64,000 nt of DNA from Candidatus Hydrothermia bacterium (lineage in GTDB: Bacteria > Hydrothermota > Hydrothermia > UBA1063), in the NCBI GenBank assembly GCA_049719805.1, contig JBNARF010000002.1:423926-487925 (forward strand), given 5' to 3'. Below the pieces are notes generated by a model. That model ran no database searches and was not told the DNA's origin. It saw only the letters and a list, made by a program, of their open reading frames with translations. Positions within the stretch are counted from its first letter, which is position 1. Every line of letters begins with the position of its first letter. Made by a program: the position numbers and the translations under genes. Positions 1 through 52,641 of the stretch are shown here, piece after piece.

Positions 1-732
1 TGTTTGCTCATTGTTATAGCAGTGTAATAAAATGACTACATTGTCTCTTTAGTTCTCTGACGACTTAAGGCCTGTTTTTCATATTGTCAGACTGTTAGAC
101 TGTTTAAGTTCCCGGTACACTTGAACTCATCTTCCCCATTTTATGCAGATTCATTTATGTTTTTTCAATGCTCTCTCAATAGGGAATCTTTTAACAAAGA
201 TTTGTGCCCCCTTGATGATCTACTCATCTGCCATTACATCCTTCTCTACTTCCTATTTGTTGAAGTCAGGATCGGTGGTGTTTTTATAGAGCTTATTTCC
301 TGATCCTTCCTTTATTTTTTGGAGTTAATAGGTACTTTCGATCCCACCAGATTACCGATTGGTTATTAGCAAGAATCCATGACCTCCAGATACCGTTTTT
401 AAAGTTTTTTCTGTCCAGTTTCCAGTAACTTAATTCTTGCAGGGCTGTCCATGTGCCACAACTTTATTGAGCGTTTACCCTTTTCTCCGGAACTCTAATT
501 TTATATTTATGAATTAAGTGAGTTTTAACTACCCGGTTCAAAAAAGGATCTACTTCCCTGAAAACATCCCCTTACCCGAACGTTTTTTCTACAAAAGGGT
601 GAGTTTTTCAAATAGCGCCGGATTAACAGTTCCTGAAGGTTCTCTTGAGGAAAATACCAGCAGGTAACCTGAGTATCTGGAAAAAGGTAAATGCCATAAC
701 CAAACACCTTCTAATAAGGCGAAGCCACAAAA

Positions 733-3282
733 CTACTGGTTATATTCCTTAATTTCAATATCTTCCTGTCTTGCAGCTTCTAATATTTTATCCTCATAAT
801 CTGATTTACTGAGCCATCCATCTTTTGCCTCTATGTATATTTTTATGTTACACTGTTTAAACTTACTTTTCAAATAGTTTATAATCCTCGTTATTGTAGA
901 CATTTTGCCCTCTAAATTTGAGGGAAGTTTAAGTTCTAAACTTATTTCGCGTCGAGTTTCTTCGATCCGCGACACTTCTGTTTTCTCTTCCCTTACTTCA
1001 GATCCGTGCGTTGAAACTTCTTCCTCTAACTCCATAACCCCTGGCTCTATCTTTTCCTTTTCTCCAGTTTTTCCCTCACATAAATCCGGCCTTATTATAA
1101 TTTCTCCTTCACTGAGGGTTATGTGTGGAGTTTCCTTTATGTTATTACAAACAGGTTTTCCGTTCTCAATGTATCCGAACCCAAACAATCCTCTTTCTAC
1201 TCCCTCTTTAAGGCCGGTGATGAAACCTTCTTTCGAAGTTATTCTTAACTCACCGGGTGTTTTAAACAAAGATTCAAAAAGTCTAGAGATCTCAATGAAG
1301 TCTTTTCCGGCAAGGTACTTGTCTTTGATCACGTTGGGTGCTATTTTCTCCAGAATTTCCCCAGAAATCTTCAAATAATTGTAAATTTCCTGATCAATTT
1401 CCGTTTCTCCGTAAGTTGGTAATCCCAGATCTATTTCTTTAAATCCTTCTCTTGATGGAATGAACAACTTTCTGTATAACTTTCGGAGTTCTTCATATTC
1501 TCTTTCTTTATAGCTTTTGAGTTTATTTCTTAATTCATTTTTCTGGGTTTCTGATAAGTTTAGTTTATCGTCCTGCTCTATTTGCCGCAGTGCTATTAGC
1601 TTCCTCAGGTAAGAGTAAAATGATTCTCTCTGTCCTTCATCAATGCATAAAAATATTAGTGTGTTTCTAAATACCCGTGGCGTTTCGCCGTGTTTCTCCA
1701 GAAAGTCCATATCTGGCTTGTCTGAATTTAGAATTATAAGTTTTAACTCTTCGTTGTCTGCTACATCTCTGGAGAATTTTGGATGGATATATATCCTGAA
1801 TTTTCTTCCTCGTGATGTATGATCTCCAATTACTTTTTTTTCTTCCTCGTAAATCTCGTTTGTTGTTACATTCTCCTCCCTTGAGATAATTATTCTATTA
1901 AGATTTGGTCGATTTGTAAAGAAAAATCCGTCGTCAGAAAGATAAAATAGTTGTTCTTTAAGGTTGTTTAAAACAGTGTCTATAACATTGATTTCGAAAG
2001 CAGGTTGGGCGGTAGTTAATTTTATTTCTCTTATACTGGCACCGGTTTCACCTTTCCCAGAAAATGAAAGCATAAATATGGCTGTACTCACGGAGGTTCC
2101 TAGTTTGTGAGGCAAATACGAACTTCCCATCATTTGATTAACTTTCTTGGCACCTGAATCTCTTGAAGTGATGTCCTGGGCTATTATACTATCCCACTCC
2201 TGTCCAATAAGTTGTATGAGTTCTCTCCTCAGGTCTTCGTTTTCAAGGTTGAAGTCAGAAAGGCGTATGAAAGGTATGTTTTCATTGTTAATTAAATCGT
2301 GAACAACCATGGAGAGGATCCTGAGGACTCCTCTTGTTCTCTGGAAAGTGGGAAAAGAGCCCCATCTTTTGTAAAGGACATCAATAACCTCAGGTTTGAA
2401 CGGATAACTTCTAATAAATCTCTCTCTATATGCTGAAACCTCATCTTCCAAGAGAATTCCTGCTTTTTTTGCATATTCTACAAAACCATCCACTACTTTT
2501 TTGGCTTCTTTTTCGTCAATCTGTTTAAATAGCCTCGCGCGAACCACATTTTCTATCTCGTCGTCCTGGACCGGAGTGTAAATTTTTTCCGTCCTTCCGG
2601 TTATTTTCTGGAGTTGTTGAAACATCTTTTCAGCATTTTCGTCGTAGTGTTCCAGAATGCTTGAGGGAAGGGTGAGAACCAGAAGTGAATTACCCACTGC
2701 GGCCACAGCCCCCGTAAGTTCCTGAATAAAGGCGAGGGTTTGTGCAGCAAGGTTAGAATCCCCCACCTTTATTCCTGCTGCCTTGGTCATATACTGCAGG
2801 ACTTCGTCCATGAGTATAAGCACAGGAGCATTCTCAGAAAGCAGTTTTATTAGTGCTTCTTTTCCTGGAGCGGTGTCTCCTTTTGTAACCTCAATTTTAC
2901 CTGTTAACTGTTTTTCGAGTTCTTCCCACAGTTTATCTGTGGATTTAAGTGCTGTTCCATCCAGTACCACGGTCTTTGTATTCCATTCCCTGGCTTTATG
3001 ATATAGAGCTATCAGTGTGTGGGTTTTACCACCACCGAAAGGTGTCTGGAGCTGGATTGTTGAATCACCGCTTTTCCCCTCAAGTCTGTTTTTTGCAACA
3101 TTCAGTATGTTTTTTAATCCGGCAGTTTGATATGTTTTTCGGAAAAACAAATCGGGATTCTGATAATCATTGGGTGCCTGCCCACTGGCAACTAGCCAGA
3201 GGTCTGCGGCAAAAACATCCATGGTAAGTTGGCCCTTGACTATGTCATCATGAGGGATTGCAATCCGTGTAAACCCCTTCAT
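733..3282 (-). CDS. DUF499-family P-loop ATPase (BrxC/PglY-like) of an R-M/BREX-like defense module
   Basis: 849-aa ORF. N-terminus has the PHDDIVKGQLTMDVFAADLW...LQTPFGGGKTH Walker-A block typical of DUF499, and LILMDEV is a Walker-B-like block. The stop abuts the methyltransferase gene. Confidence 0.8.
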   Translation of the reverse strand: MKGFTRIAIPHDDIVKGQLTMDVFAADLWLVASGQAPNDYQNPDLFFRKTYQTAGLKNILNVAKNRLEGKSGDSTIQLQTPFGGGKTHTLIALYHKAREWNTKTVVLDGTALKSTDKLWEELEKQLTGKIEVTKGDTAPGKEALIKLLSENAPVLILMDEVLQYMTKAAGIKVGDSNLAAQTLAFIQELTGAVAAVGNSLLVLTLPSSILEHYDENAEKMFQQLQKITGRTEKIYTPVQDDEIENVVRARLFKQIDEKEAKKVVDGFVEYAKKAGILLEDEVSAYRERFIRSYPFKPEVIDVLYKRWGSFPTFQRTRGVLRILSMVVHDLINNENIPFIRLSDFNLENEDLRRELIQLIGQEWDSIIAQDITSRDSGAKKVNQMMGSSYLPHKLGTSVSTAIFMLSFSGKGETGASIREIKLTTAQPAFEINVIDTVLNNLKEQLFYLSDDGFFFTNRPNLNRIIISREENVTTNEIYEEEKKVIGDHTSRGRKFRIYIHPKFSRDVADNEELKLIILNSDKPDMDFLEKHGETPRVFRNTLIFLCIDEGQRESFYSYLRKLIALRQIEQDDKLNLSETQKNELRNKLKSYKEREYEELRKLYRKLFIPSREGFKEIDLGLPTYGETEIDQEIYNYLKISGEILEKIAPNVIKDKYLAGKDFIEISRLFESLFKTPGELRITSKEGFITGLKEGVERGLFGFGYIENGKPVCNNIKETPHITLSEGEIIIRPDLCEGKTGEKEKIEPGVMELEEEVSTHGSEVREEKTEVSRIEETRREISLELKLPSNLEGKMSTITRIINYLKSKFKQCNIKIYIEAKDGWLSKSDYEDKILEAARQEDIEIKEYNQ

Positions 3283-5994
3283 TAAAATAACCTCCTTTGA
3301 GAGTCTTCATGCCTTATTTCATCTACCAACTTATCTTTCCCGCCCAGGAATCCATCTAAAAGTCTCTTTTCTCTGCTATCATCAGGTAAAGTCTCTGAAA
3401 TTGCCTGAGCAACCCTGTAAAAAGCTTTGCTTAAACCATATCCAGTTTCCTTCAGGACTTCTTTCATTTTTTCCTTTTTCCCGTCTTTCCAGAGTATGAG
3501 AACTTTGTGAAGCACGTCAATCATCTCCCGGGGGTTTTTTAGATCATCAAGTTTTCTGTCCTGAGGGCCAAGAACAATTATGAATTCCTTATCTTTTTTT
3601 ATAAAGCTTTTATTCCATTCCTCTTCAACATTTACACCTGTTGATTGGGCAAGTTTTCTTGCATCATCAAAATGAACCTTTGCCTCCTGGTAAGTCCATC
3701 TCCACAAAATATAAAATCTTGTAAGTGGTGAAAGCTCTCCCGCAATGCCGTTGTGGAGAATTTGCCTTACAGCATAATCTGTGACAATCTCACGGACATA
3801 ATTAAGCAATTCTCCTGCGCTAATCTCATTACCCTCATAATCCATGATCTTTTTGTATTTTCCAAATATCTCAATGGCTGAACCAATGGCAGCGATGAAA
3901 TAATCGGCACCGCTTATTCCCTCTTCCCAGAGCATCTCGAGCTTTTCTGTGATGTGTTTTTTCATCTCCTCCTTTACTTCATTTAGCCAGCCTGTTTCTT
4001 TTCTTTCTATTTTTCGACACACAAGGTAAATAGAAGAAGAAAGAGCTGCGGTTTCTTTAGCTGTAAGTCTTGTTTTCATTTCAGTATCAATGGGCCAGGA
4101 TGCAGTTACCACTAAGTTAGATTCTAAAAGCGAGTTTATTAATGTTTCCCAGCCTGATGTTGATTTATGGGTATAAACAATGGTTGCAATTCCATTGGGT
4201 TTTAAGACACGGTGAATTTCTTGGAAAGCTTTCTTAAGCATACTTTCAAAGAATTCCTTAGCTTTCTTTTCATTTCCATGTCTGACTGGGTTTGCAACTG
4301 TTTCTTTTGACTTTGGGACTAAGGGAGTTAAAAACAGTTCGGGATAAAGATCTCCAATGCTTCTTTTTAGCCAGACATAGAAGAAATCAGAAAGTTCAGC
4401 ATAGTTTATATTGTCATAATAAGGGGGGTCTGTAAAAACCGCATCAAAATAGTTATCAGTATAGGGAAGCTCTGTGGCAGAGGCTTGGGTGATGGTTGGG
4501 ACTAAGGAATAGGGACTGGGGGTTGTGGCAATTTGGGAAAGGTGAGAGAGAACATTAAGTATATTATTTTTGAGGATGTTTTGATACGAATATCCCTTCT
4601 CGGAAAAAAATGTTTGTTTCGATATAATCCCAATTCATAGGGAGAGCTTGTCTAGCAAAGGTTGTAGATATTTTTTCCCATGTTCCATCCCAATGACAAA
4701 GTGTAGAATTTGTGTCTGCTAACCTACTAGGTATAAACACCAAATAACTCACCACTGCCTTTGCATACTCTTTATCATATCCTTCTTCAAGCATTTTTTT
4801 GTAGGCAAGTCTTCCTTTCTCGGTAAAGGTAATCAAAGCCAGTTTCTGGCGCGAATTGAAGAGGTTGCCCCATTTGAGCATTCCATACCTTTGAACACGA
4901 AAACCAAGGGTTTCTTTCGGAGGTAATTCCTCATCTGGCACAGGGTCAATGCCCCATTCTTCCATAAGTTTTTGCCTTTTTTCATTCAGATACTTTTGTG
5001 CTTCTTTGAAGATCTGGATGTCCCTTTCCTGTGCAAGTCTGTACCTTTTTCCGTCTCTTCCGGGCTTGTGTAGAACCACGGCAACCATCCTTTCTCCTGC
5101 TTTTCCTTCCTGAAAGAGCTTCCTCGTTCTTTTGTCGTCAACCACAGAACCGCAGACGGGACAAACCGCTATAGCCCTTGAAACCGTCCCCCTTGTGGGG
5201 TCAAAACCTTCGGGCATTTTCTCGTATCCATCGCCCACTATCTTAAATTTGACCTCTCTTCCCTCCACAAAAGGATAGAGTGAAACCTTTTTGTTTTTTT
5301 TCTTTGCAAGCCAGAATTGTCGCATTAAGGGAATCTCAGCACCGCAGGTAGGGTTCTGGCAGGGGATAGTCCTTGCCCATATGTAGCCCACGGGTATTGA
5401 ACCATCTTCATCTTCAGGATAAAATCTTCCGATTTTTTCTTTTGCCTCTTTAAGAACCCAATTCCCCCATTTTTTTACATCTTCAAGGAGGGGATTTATG
5501 GTATGGGTCCCAAGGATACCCTGCTTGTTTTTAACTTCCACTGGTCTACCATATTTTTGGGGATATTCAAGTGTGCATTTCAGAATTAGCGTGGCAACGG
5601 GATTGTATTCGATTGCATGTGCTTCACAACCAATGCGAAGAGCTTCGAGGGGGATTGAACCTCCACCAGCAAATGGATCGAGAATTCTCGGGGGTTTCCC
5701 GTTGTTTACCTTCAAAACATTTTCTCTTGCTTCTGTGATTATTCTTTTATTCAGACTGTTCTCCCATTTTGAGAGTTCTATTATGAAATTTTTGATCTTT
5801 TCGCGTTCTGCGGAGTCATCTGTGGCTGGAATCAAAGCAGCAAAATTTGTTGCCCTTGAAGAGGCCAAAGGACGGCGTGCCCACCAGATATGTAGTGTTG
5901 AAATGTGCCCGTGCCTTATATTTTTCTCCCTTACAGATTCTTCGCTTACTTCCTTTATCGGAAAGCTCACTTCAATGAACCGTTTATCGTTCAT
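3282..5994 (-). pseudogene. DUF1156-family Zn-ribbon N6-adenine DNA methyltransferase (COG1743/PglXI-like), disrupted by two frameshifts
   Basis: The N-terminal 476-aa ORF has [13 protein letters not shown], the SAM motif [13 protein letters not shown] and the Zn ribbon [10 protein letters not shown]. The catalytic FTDPPYYDNINYAELSDFFYVWLKRS motif is read by hand in a third frame between 4380 and 4440. That frame runs into the 319-aa C-terminal ORF. The frame changes are at the A7 tract 4604-4610 and near 4422-4442. Confidence 0.75.
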
Positions 5995-6306
5995 TTATCC
6001 ACCCCTTTTTTATTGATTTCTAAGTTTTTTTAATCTCATTGCTTTCACCTTTTTGTGTCTATTAAAAAGTCCCTTAAGTAAACAAGTTTTTACCTATAGT
6101 CCCTCTAGCTTTGTAATTTCACAAATATTCATCTTTTTTGTACTGTTTAACATCAGTTCATTTGCAAATTTTAAATTGTTATTTAAGTATATAGTGGACT
6201 TCAGGTCCTTCCATCTTTTTGCAAAATTCATGATTTAAGCTTTTTCCGTATCTCAAGATCTTGCTTTTTCACCCAACTTACCATTGAGTGTGATACTCCA
6301 CGCGAG

Positions 6307-6546
6307 TTATTTCCCCTCTGTTTTTACATTCATAATCGAGCTTACCTTATCTTCGTTTAATCCCGGTTTTCCAAAATGGGTCTTTTTGTAGATACTCCTT
6401 AACGATATAAATAAAAATCCTTTACTGGATTCTTGGAATTTCGGCTCAGGAAGACCGTGTTTTTTAGAATGTGCAAAACCCCTCTTGGTGCCAGTGCTCC
6501 ATCTTTCAATTGTTCCGGCATAATGGGGTACCATTGCAATTAACAT
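6307..6546 (-). CDS. hypothetical small protein (79 aa), translationally coupled to the upstream unknown gene
   Basis: The start overlaps the upstream stop in an ATGTTAA arrangement. No recognizable domain. Confidence 0.35.
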   Translation of the reverse strand: MLIAMVPHYAGTIERWSTGTKRGFAHSKKHGLPEPKFQESSKGFLFISLRSIYKKTHFGKPGLNEDKVSSIMNVKTEGK

Positions 6547-7442
6547 GCTTCTTCCTTCGAGAAATGATTACCTTCTGACAAATGGAAGGTGAGGCATTCA
6601 TGCAAGATCCCACGGTCCAGAAGCGGACTACGGTTCTCGTTAGTTTTTATTTGTGTTTCTGTGGTATCGATGTAATACCCACGAAATTGTGCGGTAATAC
6701 ATGCCTCTCTGATTGCGGGAACAAGATAATCGCAGACAACATTTTTCTTCATGCTATCTGTTTCTAACCCGCCGATAATATGCATGCTGGCAGGTTTTAT
6801 TAACTCTTTATCCCGAGTGTGAAGATTTTTCCTTACTTCACTATTATATATAATCTCCACTGGAGTATTTAATCCACCTGCTTTCAAAATAGAGTTTTGA
6901 AAATATCTCTGTGGAATCTTTCCAGAGAATAACCCTTTATAACTACAAAGTTTCCCATTTTTTGCCAATTTAAGAGTTTCCGGTATTATTTCAGGAAAGT
7001 CTTTCCGGGAAATGGCCAATCTCTCTTTAGCGCCATCCCAAAGTTTAAGAAAAGTTGCCTCACATGTTTCTGCGATGATTGCGGTGGACAGAAAAGAATA
7101 ACTTAAAAGCCTTTGCTTTTTCAGTTCTGTTTCTATTGGCTTTACACTGCTCGATTTCGGCTTTGTTGAACTTGCTCCAGTGTAAGGTCTTCCTCTGTAT
7201 GAGACTGGAGATTCTAAATATAAGGCCACTATTTTGAGGTTAGCATTATCTTTAGTATTCTCCCTTAGTTTATTGCTTAAACCCTTGAGCAATTGTTTTA
7301 AGTTTTTAAGTCCAGCAGGATTACCACTGTCTGGTATGCAAGAATGGAAAATGACACCATCTATATCGAGAATAGCAAAAGGAATTTTCAGAAGTTCGTC
7401 TTCTCGGAATTCTTTAAATTCAGCAGTCTGGTTTTCCTTCAT
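6540..7442 (-). CDS. hypothetical protein embedded in the defense module. It has an hhhDxDGhh motif (FAILDIDGVIF) reminiscent of HAD motif I or the PIN first strand
   Basis: 316-aa ORF with an alternative TTG start at 7490. The ATG at 7442 overlaps the helicase 3' end by 23 nt. Same strand and operon as the helicase and methyltransferase. Confidence 0.5.
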   Translation of the reverse strand: MKENQTAEFKEFREDELLKIPFAILDIDGVIFHSCIPDSGNPAGLKNLKQLLKGLSNKLRENTKDNANLKIVALYLESPVSYRGRPYTGASSTKPKSSSVKPIETELKKQRLLSYSFLSTAIIAETCEATFLKLWDGAKERLAISRKDFPEIIPETLKLAKNGKLCSYKGLFSGKIPQRYFQNSILKAGGLNTPVEIIYNSEVRKNLHTRDKELIKPASMHIIGGLETDSMKKNVVCDYLVPAIREACITAQFRGYYIDTTETQIKTNENRSPLLDRGILHECLTFHLSEGNHFSKEEAC

Positions 7443-10400
7443 TTTCCCACATCTCGCATTTGTTTTTCCACTCTTCTGCAGAGATAACAAATCTCACAAC
7501 CTCAACCTTTTCTTCGGGTTTCAGGTTCTCTGCAGGGTTTCGTATGATATATAACGCTGGATTAGAGGTAACATTTGTCACAATATACAGATAGTACTGA
7601 TCCTTAAATCTCTTCGCCTTAAACCATTCGTTTGGAGTTAAAGCTACATCACCTTCATATGCTCTTGCTTTTACTTCTATGTATCTTATTTCGCCTTTTC
7701 CCCTCGATCTGATATCAAATCCCAGATTTTCACTTGATACATCCTCGGGCTCCCTTCCTTGCTGTCTCTCGTATTCCATTGCTATTTCCATGCCAATTCT
7801 CTCAATTTCTTCATTTTCAATCATATCTGCTTTTTCAGGAATTACCCGGATTACGGTAAAAAATTCAGGCATAGGTATGGTAAGTGTCTGCCCCAGTTCC
7901 AGTTCTCTCTCAAGTTCTTTTTTTGCTTCCTCGTACCTTTTCTTCTGTTCCTCTTTATTTCTAATGGGCAGGTCTACCCTTTCACCTTTTGCCTCTCTTT
8001 CGCGAAGTTCTACAAGTTCCTCATCCAGTTTTCTGATGAGATTATTTAAAGATTCAAGGCCGTATTTCTTTTTAATCTCGGCCTGCCTTCTTCTTTCTTC
8101 TAATATTTCGTTTTTGTAACTTTCAACAGTTCTAATGGCTGCTGATAAGGTTTTTTCCTCATTTAAGGTTTTTTCCTCATTAGGAATAACGACATTTTCC
8201 CCCTGATTAACTGGGGAAAGGTCCCATAAAATCGCCGGATTGATCTCTCTTAAATTTTTTCCATCATCGTATAAAGCGATAATTTTTCTCCCTGCTACCT
8301 CCCCCTTCCCATCTCTTACTTCACCTATGTAAAACCAGATGTATCCATTGAGGATTCCCGAAGGATCCTTAAATACAGAACCCCTGGTAACTTCTTCTGA
8401 GTATTTCCTTAATATCCATTCAAGAAGGGCTTCAAATAGCGGATGTCCAAAAGATATAAATTCCGTGTCCGGGTTTTTGAAGGCTATGTCTTTATCAAAG
8501 GTTGCTCTGGGATATCTCGACATTACCACACCGAACCTGTTTTTAAATTCTTCGCTCTCTGCAATTTTTCTTATCTCATAGGGAATAGAATCTATAGCAA
8601 TGAATCCTTCTTTGATTTCCCTCATTCTCCCACCTGCTTTCTGGAAGGATTTTTTAAAGAATTCTACCACATATTCAGGAATTAAGCGGTATTCCTTTGC
8701 TTTTTCTGCCATCTCTTTTATTCTGGTGTAGTCTATGATCCTTGTGGCGAGGCTTTCTCCTAAAATTTCCTTTATCTTTTTTATGTATTCCTCATTGGGC
8801 TCTATATCCAGTTCTTTCAGGATTTCATCCATACTCTTTGCATTGGTTACTGCTTCCAGTATCAACTGGTAAAGGTTTTTCCCTTCAAATACCTCTCCTA
8901 TAACGTCAAAAACTCGATCACTTCCAAGTTTGCTTCTAATCTCCTCAAGTTTCTCAAAGAGTTTAAGAAGGACCTTACCCTCTCGTGTATCCTCCGCCAC
9001 GATATTGAAAATATACACATCTTTTTGTTGCCCGTATCTGTGGATCCTTCCCATTCGTTGCTCGAGCCTGTTGGGATTCCAAGGGATGTCGTAGTTAATC
9101 ATTATATGGCAAAATTGGAGATTTATTCCTTCGCCTGCTGCCTCAGTTGCAACCATGATTTCTGTTTCATCTCTGAAAATTTTCTCTGCCTTAATTCTCT
9201 CATCTATGTTCATTCCGCCATGAATACAGTTAACCTTGTATCCCCATGATTTAATTTTACTGTGAAGATATTCAAGAGTATCCCTGGATTCAGTAAATAT
9301 CAGAATTTTCTTGTTCCCCTTCATCTCCTCAATTTTACTAAAGCCTTCTCCAATTGCCTTTTTTAGTTCATGTAGTTTTATTTCCTCTTCTTTATTTATG
9401 ATGTCTTTTGCCTTCTGTATAAGCATCTCAATGGTTCTAATTTCCTCCTTCAACTCTTCAGGGTCACTGGCGATGGTTATAGATTCCCATTCTTCTTCGT
9501 TTTCCCATCTCTTACTTTCTTCCAGATCGTCCATTTCCTCATAGTCGAAGGGGAAAAGGCCCTCCTTTGGTTTTTCTTCTCCGCTCAGAATTTTTTCAAG
9601 TCTCTCTTTCCTTCTTTCAAGAGATTTCAAAAGTGCGTAAGTGCTGGATGCCATTCTCCGCTGGAGTATCACGAGGGCAAATGCAATGTTTCTTTTTTTG
9701 TCAAATTGCAGCGCTTTGTTATATTGTTCAACCACATAACGAGAAACTTCATTATAGAGTGATTTTTCATCTTCTGAGAGGCGAAACTTGATGGTTATAG
9801 GGAACCTTCTCGTAAAAATTGGTCTTCCATCAAAATCCTTAAGATCTTCTTTTAATCTTCTTATAAATAATGGGTTATCGTTATTTTTAAGGGACTCTTC
9901 TACCATTTTGCTGGTGGCAAAAAAACCTGGCATGAGTAGATCCAAAAATAACCTGAAATTTTCCGGGTCGCCTTTGTGTGGTGTTGCCGTTAAAAAGACA
10001 AGGTGGGTTGATATTCTGGATAGCACCTCTCCCAATTTGTAACGCTGTGTTCTATTTATCCTGTCACCGTACCTGTATGCTGACATTTTATGAGCTTCAT
10101 CAACGATTATAAGATCAAAGTGAGCTGAGCTTAAGCTCGCAAGTATCTCGTCCTGTTTTGCAAAGTCAATGGAAGTTATGATCTGATCGTTTTTTTCCCA
10201 TGGATTTTCCCCATAGTGAGCGTTGAAGGTATTTCTATCCAGAACCACAAACTTCTCATCGAATTTCTCTTTTAACTCTCTTCTCCACTGATCCTTTAAG
10301 TGTCCTGGTACGACTATTAAAACCCTGTTCGCTAATCGTCTAAGTTTCAACTCTTTCAAAATTAGTCCCGCCATTATCGTTTTTCCAGCGCCAGGGTCGT

Positions 10401-10761
10401 CGGCAATTAGAAATCTAATGCGCGGTTGTCTCAGAACATAGCCATATACTGCTTCAATCTGAAATGGAAGTGGGTCTATTTTTGAAACATTCATTGCAAG
10501 TAAGGGGTCAAATAGAGATGCATATTTGAATCGTGTTGCTTCAATTACCAAAAATGTCTCCTGTGGATTTGACGATAAGTCAATTACTTTTTCTATAATC
10601 TTAAGGCTATTTAAATCTTCTTTAGTGAGCAGGCAGTCTATATGTTTCTTTGAACGAATAGTTGAGCCTATAATACGAAAGTAATTGTCAAACTCTGTAA
10701 CTTTTTCGACTTTAACAGGTTCTTCCCAGAAAGGACCTTTGACTATGCATCCTTCCTTCAT
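7420..10761 (-). CDS. SNF2-family helicase (BrxHII/RapA-like) with C-terminal DUF3883
   Basis: Helicase motifs are LIADDPGAGKT, LIIVDEAHKMS, TATPHKGD and a C-terminal helicase block ending MGRIHRYGQQKDV. The DUF3883 signature GFDIRSRGKGEIRYIEVKAR...YYLYIV lies at the C-terminus. Confidence 0.85.
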   Translation of the reverse strand: MKEGCIVKGPFWEEPVKVEKVTEFDNYFRIIGSTIRSKKHIDCLLTKEDLNSLKIIEKVIDLSSNPQETFLVIEATRFKYASLFDPLLAMNVSKIDPLPFQIEAVYGYVLRQPRIRFLIADDPGAGKTIMAGLILKELKLRRLANRVLIVVPGHLKDQWRRELKEKFDEKFVVLDRNTFNAHYGENPWEKNDQIITSIDFAKQDEILASLSSAHFDLIIVDEAHKMSAYRYGDRINRTQRYKLGEVLSRISTHLVFLTATPHKGDPENFRLFLDLLMPGFFATSKMVEESLKNNDNPLFIRRLKEDLKDFDGRPIFTRRFPITIKFRLSEDEKSLYNEVSRYVVEQYNKALQFDKKRNIAFALVILQRRMASSTYALLKSLERRKERLEKILSGEEKPKEGLFPFDYEEMDDLEESKRWENEEEWESITIASDPEELKEEIRTIEMLIQKAKDIINKEEEIKLHELKKAIGEGFSKIEEMKGNKKILIFTESRDTLEYLHSKIKSWGYKVNCIHGGMNIDERIKAEKIFRDETEIMVATEAAGEGINLQFCHIMINYDIPWNPNRLEQRMGRIHRYGQQKDVYIFNIVAEDTREGKVLLKLFEKLEEIRSKLGSDRVFDVIGEVFEGKNLYQLILEAVTNAKSMDEILKELDIEPNEEYIKKIKEILGESLATRIIDYTRIKEMAEKAKEYRLIPEYVVEFFKKSFQKAGGRMREIKEGFIAIDSIPYEIRKIAESEEFKNRFGVVMSRYPRATFDKDIAFKNPDTEFISFGHPLFEALLEWILRKYSEEVTRGSVFKDPSGILNGYIWFYIGEVRDGKGEVAGRKIIALYDDGKNLREINPAILWDLSPVNQGENVVIPNEEKTLNEEKTLSAAIRTVESYKNEILEERRRQAEIKKKYGLESLNNLIRKLDEELVELREREAKGERVDLPIRNKEEQKKRYEEAKKELERELELGQTLTIPMPEFFTVIRVIPEKADMIENEEIERIGMEIAMEYERQQGREPEDVSSENLGFDIRSRGKGEIRYIEVKARAYEGDVALTPNEWFKAKRFKDQYYLYIVTNVTSNPALYIIRNPAENLKPEEKVEVVRFVISAEEWKNKCEMWENEGKPDC

Positions 10762-10901
10762 AATGTTTCTCCCTTAATCTTTAATTGTTGTGTTAAAAGG
10801 CTTGCGTGTATCTGAGACCTATAACTGCGAGAGATTGAATGAGGGCTTAAAGCCCGAGCCGGGTACCTGATGATCAGGCAAGGAGCTATTCTCTTCATTT
10901 C

Positions 10902-11504
10902 TCAAATGCCTCCTTTACTCACCTCTTGAAATTCTCTTTGTCTATCTAAGAAGGATTCAATTGGCTTTCGGTTAGCTACACAAAATGAGATTTTCCCACT
11001 TTTCGTAAATTCTTCCGCTTCCCCTTTCTCGGAGAATTCGTGCTGAGGATATCTCGCCTGGACCTGAAATGCCCATGTGATGAGTCCACACGGGGATTCA
11101 TTGTTAAAATGGGGCTTCGGTTCCTTAACCTCTTCCATGAGAGAATTCAAAAGCATTCTACCAATACCCTTTCTTAGGTTACCCTTTTCTAGAACGGATA
11201 TGCATGTAATCTCTATTAATTTTTCTTCCAGAACCGGCATATACTGAATCATTCCTACGGGTTTCCCTTCCAAGTAAGCCAATTTAGCAAAATTACCATA
11301 CCTTTCCATCACCTTCATCGCCCAGCTTTCTTTGAGGTTCGCACCCTTAATGAAAGACTCGTCCTCTTTTTTCTCAGGCGGGATGCAGAGATTTATAAGA
11401 TCTCGCACATTTTCAACATTCACATTTTTTATTTCTATATTTTTCATTCGGTCTCTCCTTATAACGCACCTCCGCCTCGTTGTTCCAGTGTTAGCGAAGT
11501 TCAT
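10902..11504 (-). CDS. GNAT-family N-acetyltransferase (true start probably the internal Met, MKNIEIKNV)
   Basis: GNAT motif A-like GIGRMLLNSLMEE, about 180 aa. Confidence 0.55.
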   Translation of the reverse strand: MNFANTGTTRRRCVIRRDRMKNIEIKNVNVENVRDLINLCIPPEKKEDESFIKGANLKESWAMKVMERYGNFAKLAYLEGKPVGMIQYMPVLEEKLIEITCISVLEKGNLRKGIGRMLLNSLMEEVKEPKPHFNNESPCGLITWAFQVQARYPQHEFSEKGEAEEFTKSGKISFCVANRKPIESFLDRQREFQEVSKGGI

Positions 11505-11620
11505 CAGCGCTTGCCGTCAATCTCTAATGCCGTGTTACGCCCTGTTTACTTTTCTCCTTTTCAGTCTTTTGGGTAAGCTTGCTTGATTCATCAATATGGG
11601 TACGCATACTTTCACGTTTT

Positions 11621-11929
11621 TTAATCATCAAAGACTCCTCCGAACATCTCTTCGGGGATTTCTAGTTCTAAAAGGCGAGACTCCGCCATTACTTCAATTA
11701 GTTGATTCATTTTCTTAAAAGCTTCTTGGCCCTGTTGAGCAAGTTTATTAAACTTGCGTTCAATTTCTAGAGGTCCTAACCTTGCCCTGTGAACATCTCT
11801 TCTAGTGAATTGCTCAAGTATTTGCAGCAATGGTTTGCGAAACAGTATGATGGCAATAAAACCAACTACAGACCAAGAAAATACTATTGCTCCTACTAAA
11901 CTTATACACTCAATAATCTCTGAGTGCAT
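11621..11929 (-). CDS. small membrane-anchored hypothetical protein
   Basis: One N-terminal TM helix followed by a charged coiled-coil tail. Confidence 0.35.
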   Translation of the reverse strand: MHSEIIECISLVGAIVFSWSVVGFIAIILFRKPLLQILEQFTRRDVHRARLGPLEIERKFNKLAQQGQEAFKKMNQLIEVMAESRLLELEIPEEMFGGVFDD

Positions 11930-12701
11930 TATTCCCCTTTTTTGTACGCATGGATTTTAACTTATGCTTATTAAAAATCTTCGGATATACTAGCAAATTT
12001 TGGGTATATGCGAACTGTTGGTGTAAACCTTCCACAAAACGATTAATATTTATTGTCTTTCTGTTCATTCTCCATAGCTTACAAAAACACTATAAAGTGG
12101 ATTTCTTATTGCTGATAGGGTTTGCCCTGGCTCGTTGACGATAAAAGTTAAATCAGTGTGGTTTACTGGGTACATGGTTTTTTACTTGTTGGGAAAGTTT
12201 GAGATTGTTTAAAGACCTATGCAAAATTGAATTTTGCATTACCTTGATTATAATGACAACCGAAAATTATTTCAAGCACCATCTTCTTGAAATGTTCGAA
12301 GCCAGGAAAATTTGATTGACTTTGCGGTTAAGGCTTAATTTAAAATCTTTTTGAGAAAAGTTTTATAGGTTGGAGAGCAAAGTGAGCGGTTAGTAGTCCT
12401 GGGAGAACTTGATGTCATGCCAAAACACTATAAAAAGGAAGTTTTTTAGGAATATTTCTTTGTCATATCGTAAGGTTCTCGTACTTTCTAAAGTTCTATG
12501 CTATTGTAATTACGCATGTTTAAGAAAAATCAATAACTTTTGGGGTGAAAAGGCGTTATAATTAATTGCGTGGATAGTCAATCGCGCTCTTAGCTTTCCA
12601 GGGACAATCAGGATATGTTCACAATAGTTATTAGCCTATGGACAATCCCTGCTTAATTGTCTTATTGCCAGAATCTGTGTTTTATGCCTGATTTATTTTT
12701 A

Positions 12702-12736
12702 GCGGAGGCAAATTTGCCGCATTTTTATTCGTTTTT
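12702..12736 (+). terminator. orphan rho-independent terminator-like hairpin (GCGGAGGCAAATTTGCCGC followed by a T-run)
   Basis: Perfect palindrome GGCAAATTTGCC followed by ATTTTTATTCGTTTTT on the plus strand. No plus-strand ORF lies upstream. Confidence 0.4.
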
Positions 12737-12768
12737 CGCCCGATTCCACTAAAAAAGAACACAAGATT

Positions 12769-14106
12769 TCATGGTAAAAAGCCATTTACATCGGTTTTGG
12801 CAAAAACTGGACGAGTAACATTATAGCCTTTGGATCCGGTGATGGCAAGGCCATAATCAGCCGTTTCAATTAAGGATGATATTGATTGGAGTTCTGAGTT
12901 TGAATCGTAAATTTGCTTCCAGATTAAATTACCCTGGACATCAGTTTTAATTACAGTGCCGAATATACCATACCTGGAAGTCCAACCATAAAATATAAAG
13001 TTATTATCGGAAGTTTGTATTGCTGATATAAGTTCTTCAAGTTCAGCGTTTTTAACTGAGTCACTCGAAACCAGATTACCATCAAAGTCAGTCTTTATTA
13101 ATAAAATCTTACGTGAGGGTACGCGAACACCTAAAAAGTAGCGATTTGAGAGTTTAAATATTGGGCTGGGGGTACTACCCGAAATATCGTTTATTGTTCT
13201 GGCCCATAAAGTGTCTCCAGACTCATTAAATTTAAAAAGAGTTGTGCCAGAAGCTGCAATGATTTCACCGTTATCCTCTTCCAGTAACCTAAAGATAGGC
13301 TCAAATCCTATACCTTTTACCCATATAGTATTTCCCTGCAAGCTTATTTTAGCTATGATCCCAATATAATGTCCATAATAGTAGGTTCGACCGCAAACAA
13401 GGATATTCCCATCTCTTGATGGCGTAAAATCAAAAATATCATAATTAGCATCGGGGATATTAACTGATATCAATGAGTCACCATTAAAATCAATTTTGAG
13501 GAAAGATGTTAGATCTTTCGTCATGAACATAATCTCATTTTCACCTGTGAATCGTGTAATACAATATTCAGAAAAGTAGTAAAACTTTGTCCATTGGATG
13601 TTGCCAGTGTTGTCGGTTTTTGATAAAAAGTATTTAATAGTGTCGTAATCAGAATAACAACCGATCACAAGAAAACTACCGTCAGGCAATTCTTTAACGT
13701 TATTGACGCTCCCCCATGTAAGTTCTTGAGGAAAGACTTTGTAAAAAACAGGGTTATTAGTTATATTAATGTAAAACGGATCAGACCAGGAATAGTTTAG
13801 CGATTTAGCTCTGATAGCAAAGGTACCCGTTTTTGTCCATTTGTGCTTAAGGGGAATGTTATACCCGACGTAGTATGTAGTATATTCAGACCCGTCTCCC
13901 CAGTCTATAATGTAGGGATATATATATGCCAAATTAGAAGAAATTTGAAACTGATATTCAATACCAATAGAGCCTTGAGATGGGCCGGTAATTGTAGCCT
14001 CAAGCTTTGGCAGATTGTCTTCCTCGTCTCCCGTTTCGTCCTCTTTTTTACAGCCATAAAAGACTGTAAGAAAGAGAATAAGCCCCAGGGTCACGATTTT
14101 CCTCAT
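12769..14106 (-). CDS. lipoprotein with PKD domain and beta-propeller-like repeats
   Basis: Signal peptide with an FYGC lipobox and the PKD motif IDWGDGSEY. Confidence 0.6.
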   Translation of the reverse strand: MRKIVTLGLILFLTVFYGCKKEDETGDEEDNLPKLEATITGPSQGSIGIEYQFQISSNLAYIYPYIIDWGDGSEYTTYYVGYNIPLKHKWTKTGTFAIRAKSLNYSWSDPFYINITNNPVFYKVFPQELTWGSVNNVKELPDGSFLVIGCYSDYDTIKYFLSKTDNTGNIQWTKFYYFSEYCITRFTGENEIMFMTKDLTSFLKIDFNGDSLISVNIPDANYDIFDFTPSRDGNILVCGRTYYYGHYIGIIAKISLQGNTIWVKGIGFEPIFRLLEEDNGEIIAASGTTLFKFNESGDTLWARTINDISGSTPSPIFKLSNRYFLGVRVPSRKILLIKTDFDGNLVSSDSVKNAELEELISAIQTSDNNFIFYGWTSRYGIFGTVIKTDVQGNLIWKQIYDSNSELQSISSLIETADYGLAITGSKGYNVTRPVFAKTDVNGFLP

Positions 14107-14722
14107 AATGTTTTCCTCCTGTTTACTGAAGGAATTTTAAAATCCATAAAAAACACATGGCAAACTCTAAAATTGATAAATCTACTCCGTTTATTTCTTC
14201 TTCAAACTTTAAAAACCTATTTACAAAATCGCCTGTTAAAGTATAAGGTGTAATGGTAATTAAGAAAAATTAACAACAAAGTCGCGGCAGGAAGTTTATT
14301 TTTAAGCAGAATGAAACTCACATATCTGGGAAGCCAAAATATTCATGTATGAATTTGGCTCTATATTATTTGCGGAAGGAGTTCGTAAGGCGCATGAGAG
14401 CGATTAACGAATTTTTGGGGGAAATTGTGATAATTTATAGAATAGCGGTTAAAAACGAAGGACTTTTACCTTAATGTGTGGTTATATACCTATTGTTTCT
14501 TCTTTTATGTATTTTAATCTGTCTCACAAGCGCCTGCTTTTGCAAATTCATAACATTTCGTAACTAAAGACTGTGTTACTGCCTGTCAAATCATTTTTAG
14601 GCAAAAACAAGAGTCAAAGCAGCGTATTTGCAGGCATTCCTGGGAGTTTTGTTGATCGAGATTTCTTTTCGTTGTAATTTTTTTCTGGATCTTGAACACA
14701 AAAGTGCCCTAATAAAAATACA

Positions 14723-14795
14723 CTCCCCGGGAGGGTCTCGAACCCCCAACCCCCTGGTTAACAGCCAGGTGCTCTGCCGGTTGAGCTACCGGGGA
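14723..14795 (-). tRNA. tRNA-Asn (anticodon GUU)
   Basis: Manual cloverleaf: acceptor stem UCCCCGG/CCGGGGA, D-stem GCUC/GAGC, anticodon loop CUGUUAA, T-arm GGGGG-UUCGAGA-CCCUC and discriminator G. CCA is not encoded. Confidence 0.85.
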
Positions 14796-15166
14796 GTGAT
14801 GCTAATATTATATGTTAGGAAAAATGTATAGTCAATTTTGCTTTAAAAGCCCTCAGGACACGACCAATATTTTAAGTTTTGAGTTCCTGCCTAATGCCAC
14901 TCGCCCTAAGTATTACTAACTTTTGCCTCAAATCTAAATTGTGTTTTTTCAATAAGTTGCTCTCTTTAAAGGCTGTTAGAAAAAATCAGCAAAATCATAA
15001 GACAATGCAGAGTTCGATGATACTAAGTTATTATGCGACAAGTTGAAAATGTCTGTAACTCAAGCGTGCGAATTTCCAGGATAAGAGTAATTTTAGAATT
15101 GATTAATTACTTTAGCCCAGCATTATAATTTTTCTAGAAGAATGTTCTCAATCTAAGGAGGTTGTT

Positions 15167-50684: not shown

Positions 50685-52349
50685 TTACCTCCTTATTTCC
50701 ATCTCTAAATAAAAACTCCTCCCGGGTTGGGGATACCCGGGTATTAAAGAGTAATTGACATCTAATAAGTTTTCAGCTCCCCCAGAAATCTCAATTTCTA
50801 GGTTCTTCAGCTCGAATTTTTTCACTACCGAAGTACTCAAGAGATATATAGGTGGCATCATTTTGGTACTATTAGGCCTCTCTGGCCTTTTTCCAATGTA
50901 AGTAAAACTGAAAGATGTGAAGAAAACTTTGATCAGAGCATTCAGGGAAATTTCCGGCCGGTAAAGATATGGCATATCAGATAGGTAAGATTTCTGAACA
51001 TTTATGTTTAAATCTGTGGAGATGGAACCGCGTGAATGAAAAAGGCTAAAGTTTACCCCATAGTGGCGAACCACAGAGTAGTTTACTGGAGTGTACTTAT
51101 CTTCTTGAATCCATACTATCGCATTGGAAATATATTTAAAAAAAGTTGTTCCTGATAAAAGTGTATTTCCTGTGGCTATTCTGAAGCCCAGGTCTACATT
51201 GGTACCCTTTTCCGGGTAAAGTTTCGTGTTACCCCTGGCGAAAGGGTCTTCAGGCCAGTAAAGCTCGTTAAAAGTCGGCTCCCTGTAAGTTCTAGAGTAT
51301 GACGTAAACACAAAAAAAGTCCTATTTATGTTTTTTGATAGGGCGATGCTATAGAGGGGGATAAGTTGAGTTTGATTTTTAGTCAGGATAAAAATGAAAG
51401 ATGGGTGTACTGTAAGTAAAGAGGTATATATTTCTAAATTTTTAGCCCCAATAGTAAGTTTTTGCCTACTTTTTGACCCAATTTTTGTTGATTTAGCAAA
51501 ATCCAGCGAATAACTTCCTTGAAAAAATTTCCATCTAAAGTTCATCAGAACATTCGCCACAAAATGAGTATCTATCTGTGAAGGAGATGTATATACCTGG
51601 TAAAAGGCACTTTGATTGAGACTTACACCAATTCCATGAGGGAGGGGAAAACTAATTTTTGTGCCTTCCAATATTTCGCTTCTATGTCCATGGTAAATCC
51701 CACCAAGAGGTGAGGGTGCTCCCGCATCTCTCCGCACCAGGATTAAGGAATTCTTACCTTCGGTATCCTCCATAAGGAATCCCAGTTTTTTGTAGCCAGT
51801 ATTGTTAACAAAAAAAGACAAGTTATCTATATTAACCTTGTAGGAGTCAACGAAGGTTTCGTATGAAAATCCTATTCGGATTTTTGGGTTGATTTTAAAA
51901 GTACTATTGATATTCTTCTCGTAATTAGAAATTTTTAGTTTAAGAGGTGTGTTATCAGGAACAAGGTTTAAGGTTCCTCCAATACCAGGAAAAGAAAGAA
52001 GGGGTGAAGAACTGTTTAGTACTTCCACGTATTTTACTGATGAAAGAGGTAATAAAGATGGGTCAGTATATCCGAGCATTGCATTAGGCAGGTAAATGCC
52101 TGCAAAAAGGATGGAGTTTTGCTCCGGAGCTGTTCCGCCAATGGACATCGAGGAATAATTTATTCCTCTGAAAATTAGCGCGTTTGAGAATAAAAAATCA
52201 TTAGAACTTTGAAGCGTAGAGACGGAGTAAAAATAAGGTGCGATAAAGACGGTTCCAGCAGTGTGGGATTCGGTTACCACTATTGTATCTTGCAGAATAA
52301 ATAAGGGTAATGATTGTAGAAAGTTGATAAATATTAAGGCTTTTAACAC
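50685..52349 (-). CDS. TonB-dependent outer-membrane receptor (BtuB-like), GTG start
   Basis: TonB box DTIVVTES and a beta-barrel C-terminus. A strong SD (AAGGAGGT) precedes the GTG start, and a cobalamin riboswitch lies upstream. Confidence 0.7.
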   Translation of the reverse strand: MLKALIFINFLQSLPLFILQDTIVVTESHTAGTVFIAPYFYSVSTLQSSNDFLFSNALIFRGINYSSMSIGGTAPEQNSILFAGIYLPNAMLGYTDPSLLPLSSVKYVEVLNSSSPLLSFPGIGGTLNLVPDNTPLKLKISNYEKNINSTFKINPKIRIGFSYETFVDSYKVNIDNLSFFVNNTGYKKLGFLMEDTEGKNSLILVRRDAGAPSPLGGIYHGHRSEILEGTKISFPLPHGIGVSLNQSAFYQVYTSPSQIDTHFVANVLMNFRWKFFQGSYSLDFAKSTKIGSKSRQKLTIGAKNLEIYTSLLTVHPSFIFILTKNQTQLIPLYSIALSKNINRTFFVFTSYSRTYREPTFNELYWPEDPFARGNTKLYPEKGTNVDLGFRIATGNTLLSGTTFFKYISNAIVWIQEDKYTPVNYSVVRHYGVNFSLFHSRGSISTDLNINVQKSYLSDMPYLYRPEISLNALIKVFFTSFSFTYIGKRPERPNSTKMMPPIYLLSTSVVKKFELKNLEIEISGGAENLLDVNYSLIPGYPQPGRSFYLEMEIRR

Positions 52350-52384
52350 GTTACCTCCTTTGCCCCAGCACCCCGGGGGCAGGG

Positions 52385-52555
52385 TTTACCTGTTCAGGTT
52401 CGGGTCTCCCGGCTCGTGGCACCCTTTCCCCTTCCCAAGGGCGGAGCTTGCACCCCGTCCCTCAGTGGGTTTTTGAAAGGGCCTTTTAGCCACTCACGGT
52501 TGCGGGGGCAGCGCGGGATTTTCACCCGACTTCCCCTCACCTGAACCATTCACAA
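52385..52555 (-). promoter_or_regulatory. cobalamin (AdoCbl) riboswitch
   Basis: The minus-strand RNA has the core GGGUGAAAAUCCCGCGCUGCCCCCGCAACCGUGA, a B12-box-like CCCACUG, the 3' block GCCGGGAGACCCG and P1 pairing GGUUCAGG/CCUGAACC. Confidence 0.85.
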
Positions 52556-52641
52556 AGAGCTTTATCAAAATATAACGTTTTTTATTCAATCGTTCAAACG
52601 CGCTTCTAATTTTGTTCTAATTTAGTTGTTTTAAGGCAATA

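Follow-up and report, generated by a model that had tools for sequence, protein, structure and literature searches.

Does a cluster of genes with the core families of a bacteriophage exclusion (BREX) system, but no PglZ, represent a new defence system, a known one, or the remains of one? The question was raised by positions 733-10761 of a 64,000-nucleotide stretch of DNA (hereafter the window) from a Candidatus Hydrothermia metagenome-assembled genome (MAG), located on contig JBNARF010000002.1. A first-pass annotation, made from the sequence alone, had described this cluster as a PglZ-less module resembling BREX type 3 with extra uncharacterized genes. Genes were called from a list of open reading frames (ORFs) and their translations, which gave six ORFs, all of them co-directional on the minus strand. 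These six ORFs are three core genes (hmaA, hmaB, and hmaC) and one relic gene, arranged as hmaA-[Schlafen-like relic]-hmaB-hmaC (Table 1). We found that the locus is very probably an Hma (helicase-methylase-ATPase) anti-phage operon, also called a Type-1 DUF499-centred BREX-related (BR) system, and that this copy is degenerate and likely being lost or switched off.

The best PADLOC models for the core proteins were HmaA (4.3e-208), HmaC (8.2e-117), and, after repair of its frame, HmaB (1.2e-142), ahead of BrxHII, PglXI, BrxC, and DrmD. The HmaA match spanned residues 39-1092 of the 1113-aa protein, in which Pfam recognised ResIII, SNF2-rel_dom, Helicase_C, and NOV_C (9.5e-24), the last being the current Pfam name of DUF3883. 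A 'GFDI...IEVKA' stretch, corresponding to a D...ExK motif, was read from the translation of NOV_C, and the equivalent D, E, and K residues are needed for defence and nicking in Halomonas HmaA. HmaC also matched PADLOC DUF499 (2.6e-40) and NCBIfam DUF499_antiphage (1.3e-50), carried a Walker A motif (GGGKT, residues 83-87), and was without an N-terminal HEPN domain; its start overlapped the hmaB stop by 1 nt. Pfam DUF499 (PF04465) was not reported by hmmscan for the 849-aa HmaC at E<=0.01. A precomputed table lists PF04465 for the 483-aa N-terminal HmaC fragment of a near-identical sister MAG (L087:10001-11452), and the NCBI name of that fragment is DUF499 protein. The 476-aa ORF of the methyltransferase gene matched Pfam DUF1156 at 7e-23, and the FxGxG and DPPY motifs were both present in hmaB. 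Much of the first-pass annotation was borne out by these results, including the co-directional minus-strand genes, the SNF2 plus DUF3883 call, the DUF1156 methyltransferase, and the DUF499 ATPase (through PADLOC and NCBIfam, with Pfam's own DUF499 missing at the above threshold). Its remark that the methyltransferase needed repair was also correct, in that a 1-nt insertion splits one gene into ORFs of 476 and 319 aa. The surroundings were as it had described them, with a GNAT gene upstream (11504..10902) and about 730 bp downstream of hmaC (1-732) holding no ORF of 60 aa or more besides two 60-aa ORFs.

The trio is a known system. Payne et al. (2021; PMC8565338) named it Hma and catalogued 1,638 loci in 26 phyla, and Rakesh and Krishnan (2026; PMC12839542) reclassified it among DUF499-centred BREX-related systems. 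In the latter scheme, Type 1 BR is the bare trio with a helicase-REase (restriction endonuclease) fusion and no PglZ (2446 taxa), Type 2 BR has an HKD-helicase and DUF3780, and Type 3 BR has a nuclease-free helicase with PglZ and iSTAND (PMC12839542). Our locus agreed with Type 1 in its architecture: the three genes run in one direction within a single locus (extra genes between them being tolerated), and they encode an SNF2-family helicase with a C-terminal PD-(D/E)XK (NOV_C) nuclease, a DUF1156-type N6-adenine methyltransferase with DPPY, though frameshifted upstream of that motif as assembled, and a HEPN-free DUF499 AAA+ (ORC/STAND-like) ATPase, in A-B-C order and without PglZ. There was no difference in kind; only the frameshifted hmaB and the decayed inserted gene set this copy apart. 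A survey by Liu et al. (2024; PMC11232893) found hmaB at 85% and hmaC at 81% of hmaA loci, with insertions in 66.5% of operons. We examined 80 HmaA loci by tblastn, and hmaB lay downstream of hmaA on the same strand in 58 of the 58 loci where it was recovered, while hmaC lay downstream of hmaB in all 29 loci where it was recovered, the order being A-B-C throughout. HmaA was 98% identical to its 1113-aa counterpart in the related assembly L081, and 60-80% identical to relatives in Thermotogota, Thermodesulfobacteriota, Thermodesulfobacterium, Archaeoglobi, Methanophagales, ANME-1, Methanodesulfokora, and others (L001-L044). Identity of this level across distant thermophilic bacteria and archaea indicates recent inter-domain horizontal transfer of the cassette.

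Table 1. Features of the hma locus and its boundary, followed by the four differences within hma between the window and the sister MAG. Columns: feature; positions in the window; strand; evidence; remark.
hmaA, intact SNF2-family helicase with C-terminal PD-(D/E)XK (NOV_C, formerly DUF3883) nuclease; ORF of 1113 aa	7420..10761	minus	PADLOC HmaA, Pfam	
NOV_C nuclease domain of HmaA	7543..7806	minus	Pfam	residues 986-1073
Perfect 18-nt in-frame tandem duplication in hmaA	8146..8181	minus	sequence	NEEKTL twice (NEEKTLNEEKTL)
ORF of 316 aa	6540..7490	minus		
N-terminal fragment of Schlafen/AlbA_2-HisKinase-like gene	6540..7442	minus	homologues, alignment	300 codons from ATG 7442
C-terminal half of HATPase_c_4 (HisKinase-like) domain; ORF of 79 aa	6307..6546	minus	Pfam, L043 alignment	other frame
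C-terminal winged helix-turn-helix (wHTH) relic of Schlafen-like gene	6180..6306, approximate	minus	our reading through in-frame stops	
hmaB, DUF1156 N6-adenine-type DNA methyltransferase	3282..5994	minus	PADLOC, frames	one gene seen as two ORFs (476 + 319 aa)
ORF of 476 aa	4564..5994	minus		
ORF of 319 aa	3282..4241	minus		
Mosaic patch in hmaB	4495..4738	minus	alignment	about 250 nt
T7 run with +1 insertion breaking hmaB	4604..4610	minus	frame analysis, alignments	
DPPYY catalytic motif IV of HmaB	4416..4430	minus	sequence, translation	
hmaC, intact DUF499 STAND/ORC-like AAA+ ATPase; ORF of 849 aa	733..3282	minus	PADLOC, NCBIfam	
tRNA-Asn	14722..14796	minus	ARAGORN, Rfam	3' end is right boundary of variable island holding hma
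hmaA difference: window A6, sister A5	8151-8156			nuclease split off in sister MAG
hmaB difference: window AGA, sister TGA	codon 395			nonsense in sister MAG
hmaB difference: window T7, sister T6	4604-4610			frameshift in window only
hmaC difference: window A8, sister A7	1834-1841			frameshift in sister MAG

We further considered if the locus could belong to another system with related cores. The proposal that it is an unrecognised PglZ-free derivative of BREX type 3, with a new accessory gene and a new, untested mechanism, is very improbable. The kinship itself is real: BREX type 3 (BrxF, BrxC/PglY, PglXI, BrxHII, PglZ, BrxA) has homologous ATPase, methyltransferase, and SNF2 helicase cores, the BrxHII, PglXI, and BrxC models were all matched, and PglZ was absent from the locus and its flanks. 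However, the Hma models scored far better in each case (BrxHII 5e-118 versus HmaA 4e-208; PglXI 1e-15, after repair, versus HmaB 1e-142; BrxC 5e-6 versus HmaC 8e-117), and the locus differs from BREX type 3 in an active-type nuclease domain on its helicase and an N-terminal DUF1156 on its methyltransferase. PglZ, BrxA, and BrxF were found in neither flank, including 10 kb of the source contig beyond the left edge of the window, as the first-pass annotation had held for the flanks, and no locus or flank ORF matched BrxA or BrxF (iSTAND) in PADLOC or Pfam. Candidacy for BREX type 3 was therefore rejected. Moreover, PglZ was not recurrent among the hma loci of 13 close relatives. Since the trio already has a name, has been recorded in thousands of genomes, and has been tested in part, and since the Hma models fitted far better, the locus does not stand as a new PglZ-less BREX variant. 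The claim of a mechanistically distinct PglZ-free variant thus gives way to Hma (PMC8565338), or Type-1 BR, which is PglZ-free by definition and occurs in 2446 taxa (PMC12839542). The view that such a module had never been tested experimentally was also mistaken, as HmaA of Halomonas meridiana alone protects E. coli from T4, with both the helicase and the NOV_C nickase needed (PMC11232893). The 'new accessory' gene turned out to be a fragment of a known Schlafen-HisKinase-HTH gene, as described below.

The other BR types and DISARM fitted less well than Hma. Type-3 BR has the same three core families, but its helicase is nuclease-free and its PglZ near-universal, whereas our locus has NOV_C and no PglZ. 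Type-2 BR shares the DUF499 ATPase and the DUF1156 methyltransferase, and partial NCBIfam matches were obtained, but its N-terminal HKD (PLD) nuclease and DUF3780 gene are missing here and the NCBIfam scores were far below the cut-offs. The NCBIfam models DUF499_antiphage, DUF1156_antiphage, and phospholipD_antiphage look, as we infer, like the Type-2 BR trio. We found no PglZ, iSTAND, HKD-helicase, or DUF3780 in the locus itself, in the right flank as far as 22.8 kb, among the ten largest remaining ORFs of the window, or in the 10 kb left of the window. That the locus is a fragment of class 1 DISARM, with a DrmD-like helicase and a DrmMI-like methylase, is scarcely credible. The SNF2 helicase core is shared with DrmD, and both PADLOC DrmD (4e-163) and NCBIfam DISARM_DrmD (385 bits) were matched over the N-terminal 730-950 helicase residues. 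However, 385 bits is less than the 610-bit cut-off, and the HmaA model scored higher over the full length, including NOV_C, which DrmD does not have. DrmA, DrmB (DUF1998), and DrmC were absent from the locus, the flanks, and the 10 kb left of the window.

Having identified the operon as Hma, we asked if it was intact. hmaA and hmaC were open throughout, whereas the PADLOC HmaB profile was matched by two fragments (profile positions 7-530 and 672-853). The 476-aa frame ends at 4564, while a second frame, open from 4634 to 3282, holds the catalytic TDPPYYDN; the two frames overlap at the T7 run. When one T was deleted, a 903-aa product was obtained that matched the HmaB profile in a single stretch, and the restored protein stretch agreed with the in-frame allele of L031, an archaeal (Geothermarchaeum) locus. 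DNA alignment to L031 and L081 showed exactly one extra base in the window at the T run, and the orthologue in L081 is an intact HmaB of 896 aa. In the assembled sequence the frameshift precedes the DPPYY motif, and translation from the hmaB start therefore does not include it. Functional HmaB would be obtainable from the assembled sequence only via rare +1 slippage on U7, which would recreate the ancestral sequence.

The frameshift lies within a mosaic patch. Positions 4495-4738 were about 50% identical to L081, whereas the remainder of hmaB had about 95-98% nucleotide identity. The repaired patch together with its conserved downstream flank (116 aa) was 80% identical to the L031 allele. At the protein level, hmaB was 88% identical to L081 overall, versus 98% for hmaA and hmaC. 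The mosaic patch suggests that recombination took place within the methyltransferase gene.

We further investigated if the damage was confined to one genome. The window was compared with the sister MAG (L085/L087) over about 32 kb, with L081 as the outgroup. A further MAG (L084/L086) had an hma locus identical to that of the window, T7 included. The sister MAG was 99.98% identical to the window, with 7 differences in about 32 kb; 3 were single-nucleotide polymorphisms outside hma, and the other 4 lay inside it (Table 1). Each of these four disrupts a gene in one of the two haplotypes, and the sister MAG is hit in all three hma genes. In hmaA, each copy of the 18-nt duplication, which is common to L081, holds an A6 run; that of the second copy is shortened to A5 in the sister MAG, which shifts the hmaA frame. 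In L081, hmaA is intact, hmaB is intact, and hmaC has A8. The intact outgroup marks the intact state as the ancestral one, so that two sublineages have each suffered their own hit in hmaB. The system is most likely decaying, or switched off by homopolymer slippage, in this population.

An assembly error could account for the T7 frameshift, which, like two of the lesions in the sister MAG, lies in a homopolymer. It would then be possible that the operon is fully functional and that the homopolymer differences in both genomes reflect sequencing or assembly errors, which we consider rather unlikely. Three of the four disruptive differences indeed change the length of a 6-8-nt A/T run by one base, a typical error of long-read assembly, and the contigs are long (297 kb to 580 kb). 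However, the T7 state was present in two separate MAG assemblies, and no other indel was seen in the direct alignment of about 32 kb, although L086 alone contributed 44 more homopolymer runs outside hma. All 11 fully comparable housekeeping proteins (11 of 12; 5486 aa) were letter-identical in the three NCBI MAGs; the twelfth, an MFS transporter, was present in two MAGs only and by our arithmetic runs off the end of the sister contig. Of the roughly 43.5 kb compared, hma makes up 8.6 kb, and by our arithmetic the probability of three random indels all landing there is about 0.008. Moreover, homopolymer error does not explain the fourth lesion, a nonsense substitution (A>T). The clustering of indels in hma argues against homopolymer sequencing error, but does not exclude it.

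A second possibility is that the homopolymer tracts are phase-variation switches, by which hmaA, hmaB, and hmaC are toggled through slipped-strand mispairing without permanent loss of the system. There is a precedent in Pgl/BREX, where pglX of Streptomyces is phase variable through a G tract. Three independent tract-length differences occurred in the three hma genes between genomes 99.98% identical, and by our reading the ancestral 'NIFS' would be restored exactly if the ribosome slipped by +1, or transcription by one base, on U7. However, 6-8 nt is a short tract length for efficient switching, the nonsense substitution in the sister MAG is irreversible by slippage, and neither the L081 nor the L031 allele contains the T run. 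The hma region contains 45 such runs, which arise from an A+T-rich genome and proteins rich in Lys and Glu, and the tracts are therefore expected sites of ordinary decay as well. We regard dedicated switching as improbable, and ongoing loss or switching off of the degenerate Hma operon remained the preferred reading.

The two ORFs between hmaA and hmaB, of 316 and 79 aa, had been regarded as uncharacterized, with the larger a candidate new accessory gene. They are collinear pieces of one degraded Schlafen (AlbA_2)-HisKinase-like (HATPase_c_4)-wHTH gene, which is frameshifted, truncated, and heavily diverged. The homologues of the 316-aa ORF are proteins of 454-470 aa with PF04326 (SLFN_AlbA_2) and PF13749 (HATPase_c_4), at 35-40% identity and E values down to 3.9e-46, and in a multiple alignment both ORFs were collinear with these proteins. 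The real start of the fragment is ATG 7442, which gives a 23-nt overlap with the hmaA stop as in the intact L043 and L001 copies. L043 has an intact gene in this slot, to which the fragment was 39% identical, and the 79-aa ORF aligned with residues 320-400 of the L043 protein at 44% identity. Its HATPase_c_4 match (1.2e-4, 22.5 bits) was below the 26-bit cut-off, and the 316-aa ORF had no match of its own in Pfam (including AlbA_2) or PADLOC. In a comparison of gene neighbourhoods, as proposed at the outset, PglZ was not recurrent in the 13 close loci, and the slot was occupied by an intact Schlafen-like gene in L001, L043, L025, and L060 (Pfam-confirmed in L001 and L043), with a remnant in L003. 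Such genes, which join a Schlafen RNase with a minimal His-kinase and a wHTH, were linked to BREX and BR loci in at least 1017 taxa by a 2026 BREX survey, and phage-activated tRNase activity has been demonstrated for prokaryotic Schlafens. The intact L043 protein (L043:5377-6765) also matched PADLOC Aga_SIR2-PNTD1-PNTD2 (4e-24) and pAgo (1.5e-20), presumably through a shared domain.

Compared with the known pSlfn-HisKinase-HTH gene, the two ORFs keep the slot of the relatives' intact copy, the collinear order, and the E-x4-E-x-K motif (ENQTAEFK; the motif being defined as E-x4-(E/D)-x-K), but the gene is frameshifted, the wHTH is lost, AlbA_2 is not matched, and the nearest intact homologues share only 35-40% identity with it. 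The lesions comprise an 11-residue deletion, loss of CAFANTxGG, a frameshift near 6546 in the HisKinase-like domain, and a stop at 6307. The HisKinase-like domain is therefore split over two frames at about 6546 rather than contiguous, and stops interrupt the wHTH, where the frame translation reads 'ITLNGKLGEKARS*DTEKA*IMNF...' versus 'ITNKEYQNITGVKKRQATEDLR...' in intact homologues. Mismatches in the fragment were radical (mean BLOSUM -0.68), and its extra divergence was roughly equal at the three codon positions.

Several observations fit poorly with a purely neutral relic and count against decay of this gene. The 300-codon frame is still open, whereas none of 2000 simulations of random mutation to equal divergence stayed open (mean about 15 stops), and the catalytic E-x4-E-x-K motif is retained. 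The ratio of nonsynonymous to synonymous substitution rates (dN/dS) between the fragment and L081 was 0.37, from no more than 24 differences (6/7/11 over the three codon positions); a second value between the window and L081 was 0.75, from only 4 differences, and such numbers are too small to mark the fragment as a pseudogene. The same ORF was found in six related assemblies (three NCBI MAGs, L081, L082, and the window), and its overlap with the hmaA stop resembles that of the intact genes. These points would favour a truncated Schlafen-derived protein (7442..6540) that is still expressed and has a retained or new role in the operon. We consider this doubtful, given the missing AlbA_2 match, the lost CAFANTxGG and the 11-residue deletion, the HisKinase-like domain cut in two, the stops throughout the wHTH, the radical replacements, the nearly equal divergence at all codon positions, and the few differences behind the dN/dS of 0.37. 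Moreover, the open frame could serve merely to avoid polarity on hmaB-hmaC. Among 1.84 billion representatives, one close relative of the 300-aa ORF was found (P0001), which is equally truncated, and no closer intact lineage was found among them.

By homology and the published model, HmaB would methylate adenines in host DNA and thereby mark self, and HmaC, a BrxC-like ORC/STAND ATPase, would assemble or scan as the sensor. HmaA would translocate on DNA and nick or cut unmarked invader DNA with its C-terminal PD-(D/E)XK nuclease. The sole step shown experimentally is that HmaA acts as a helicase- and nuclease-dependent anti-phage effector, for the Halomonas protein against T4. In the copy studied here, the +1 insertion lies in hmaB upstream of DPPY, and the Schlafen gene, a putative back-up effector, is without its regulatory half. 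Further points weigh against this account. Methylation-gated restriction by Hma is an unproven model; in the Halomonas system, passage through a host expressing HmaB gave T4 no protection, and hmaB is missing from about 15% of hmaA loci (PMC11232893). In a promoter and terminator scan over positions 1-12500, counts equalled the shuffled expectation, which leaves the operon boundaries unsupported.

The window carries intact hmaA and hmaC next to a broken hmaB, which would be unexpected if Hma were a classical restriction-modification (R-M) system. One could propose that the window is a natural hmaB-null and the sister MAG independently hmaB-dead, which, if real and viable, would mean either that restriction is not gated by HmaB as in classical R-M or that loss of HmaB is selected with the tracts as switches, and also that the 300-codon Schlafen ORF, stripped of its regulatory domains, is kept by selection as a new accessory. 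We view this combination as a long shot. As a system, the locus offers nothing new, since Hma/Type-1 BR already has a name, is widespread, and is characterised in part, and embedded Schlafen-type genes are documented. Only the parallel knock-outs, seen in a natural population, merit follow-up. Their value is modest, as a natural snapshot of defence-system turnover in which near-identical genomes acquired independent knock-outs of one operon and the methyltransferase was hit twice. If confirmed at the read level, they could inform whether HmaB methylation protects self DNA from HmaA.

The host genome is diderm, with LptA/B, RpoN, and KdtA near hma. Synteny with a related Hydrothermia genome (L088, 93% identity) begins exactly at 14722, the 3' end of the tRNA-Asn. 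On the island side, L088 (L088:1-5299) has fragments of MmeI/Eco57I-type R-M genes in place of orf445-orf102-GNAT-hma, which places the operon in a variable defence island. A search of positions 1-14721 gave no integrase and no att-type direct repeat of the 3' end of tRNA-Asn; the repeats that did turn up were short and at chance level. Flanks of the 13 close hma loci contained unrelated housekeeping genes, and the only recurrent neighbours were SMC_N/AAA_21 and Schlafen/HATPase_c_4. GNAT, orf102, and orf445 were considered as parts of the module and rejected, as they recurred only in assemblies of the same species, not in other hma loci, and were without defence-model matches. The 445-aa ORF itself (12769-14106, minus strand), between tRNA-Asn and hma, had no Pfam, NCBIfam, or PADLOC match; its exact sequence occurred in Hydrothermia MAGs only, and the 90% cluster added one JGI/Logan metagenome member. 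On the other side, the ORF-poor stretch 3' of hmaC reaches about 880 bp in the source contig, where the next gene is DUF6512, and beyond the left edge of the window the contig carries this gene, RecA, dCTP deaminase, and ribonucleotide reductase. Elsewhere in the window, a cobalamin riboswitch (52380-52559, minus strand; Rfam, 81 bits) was located directly upstream of a TonB-dependent receptor gene (50685-52349).

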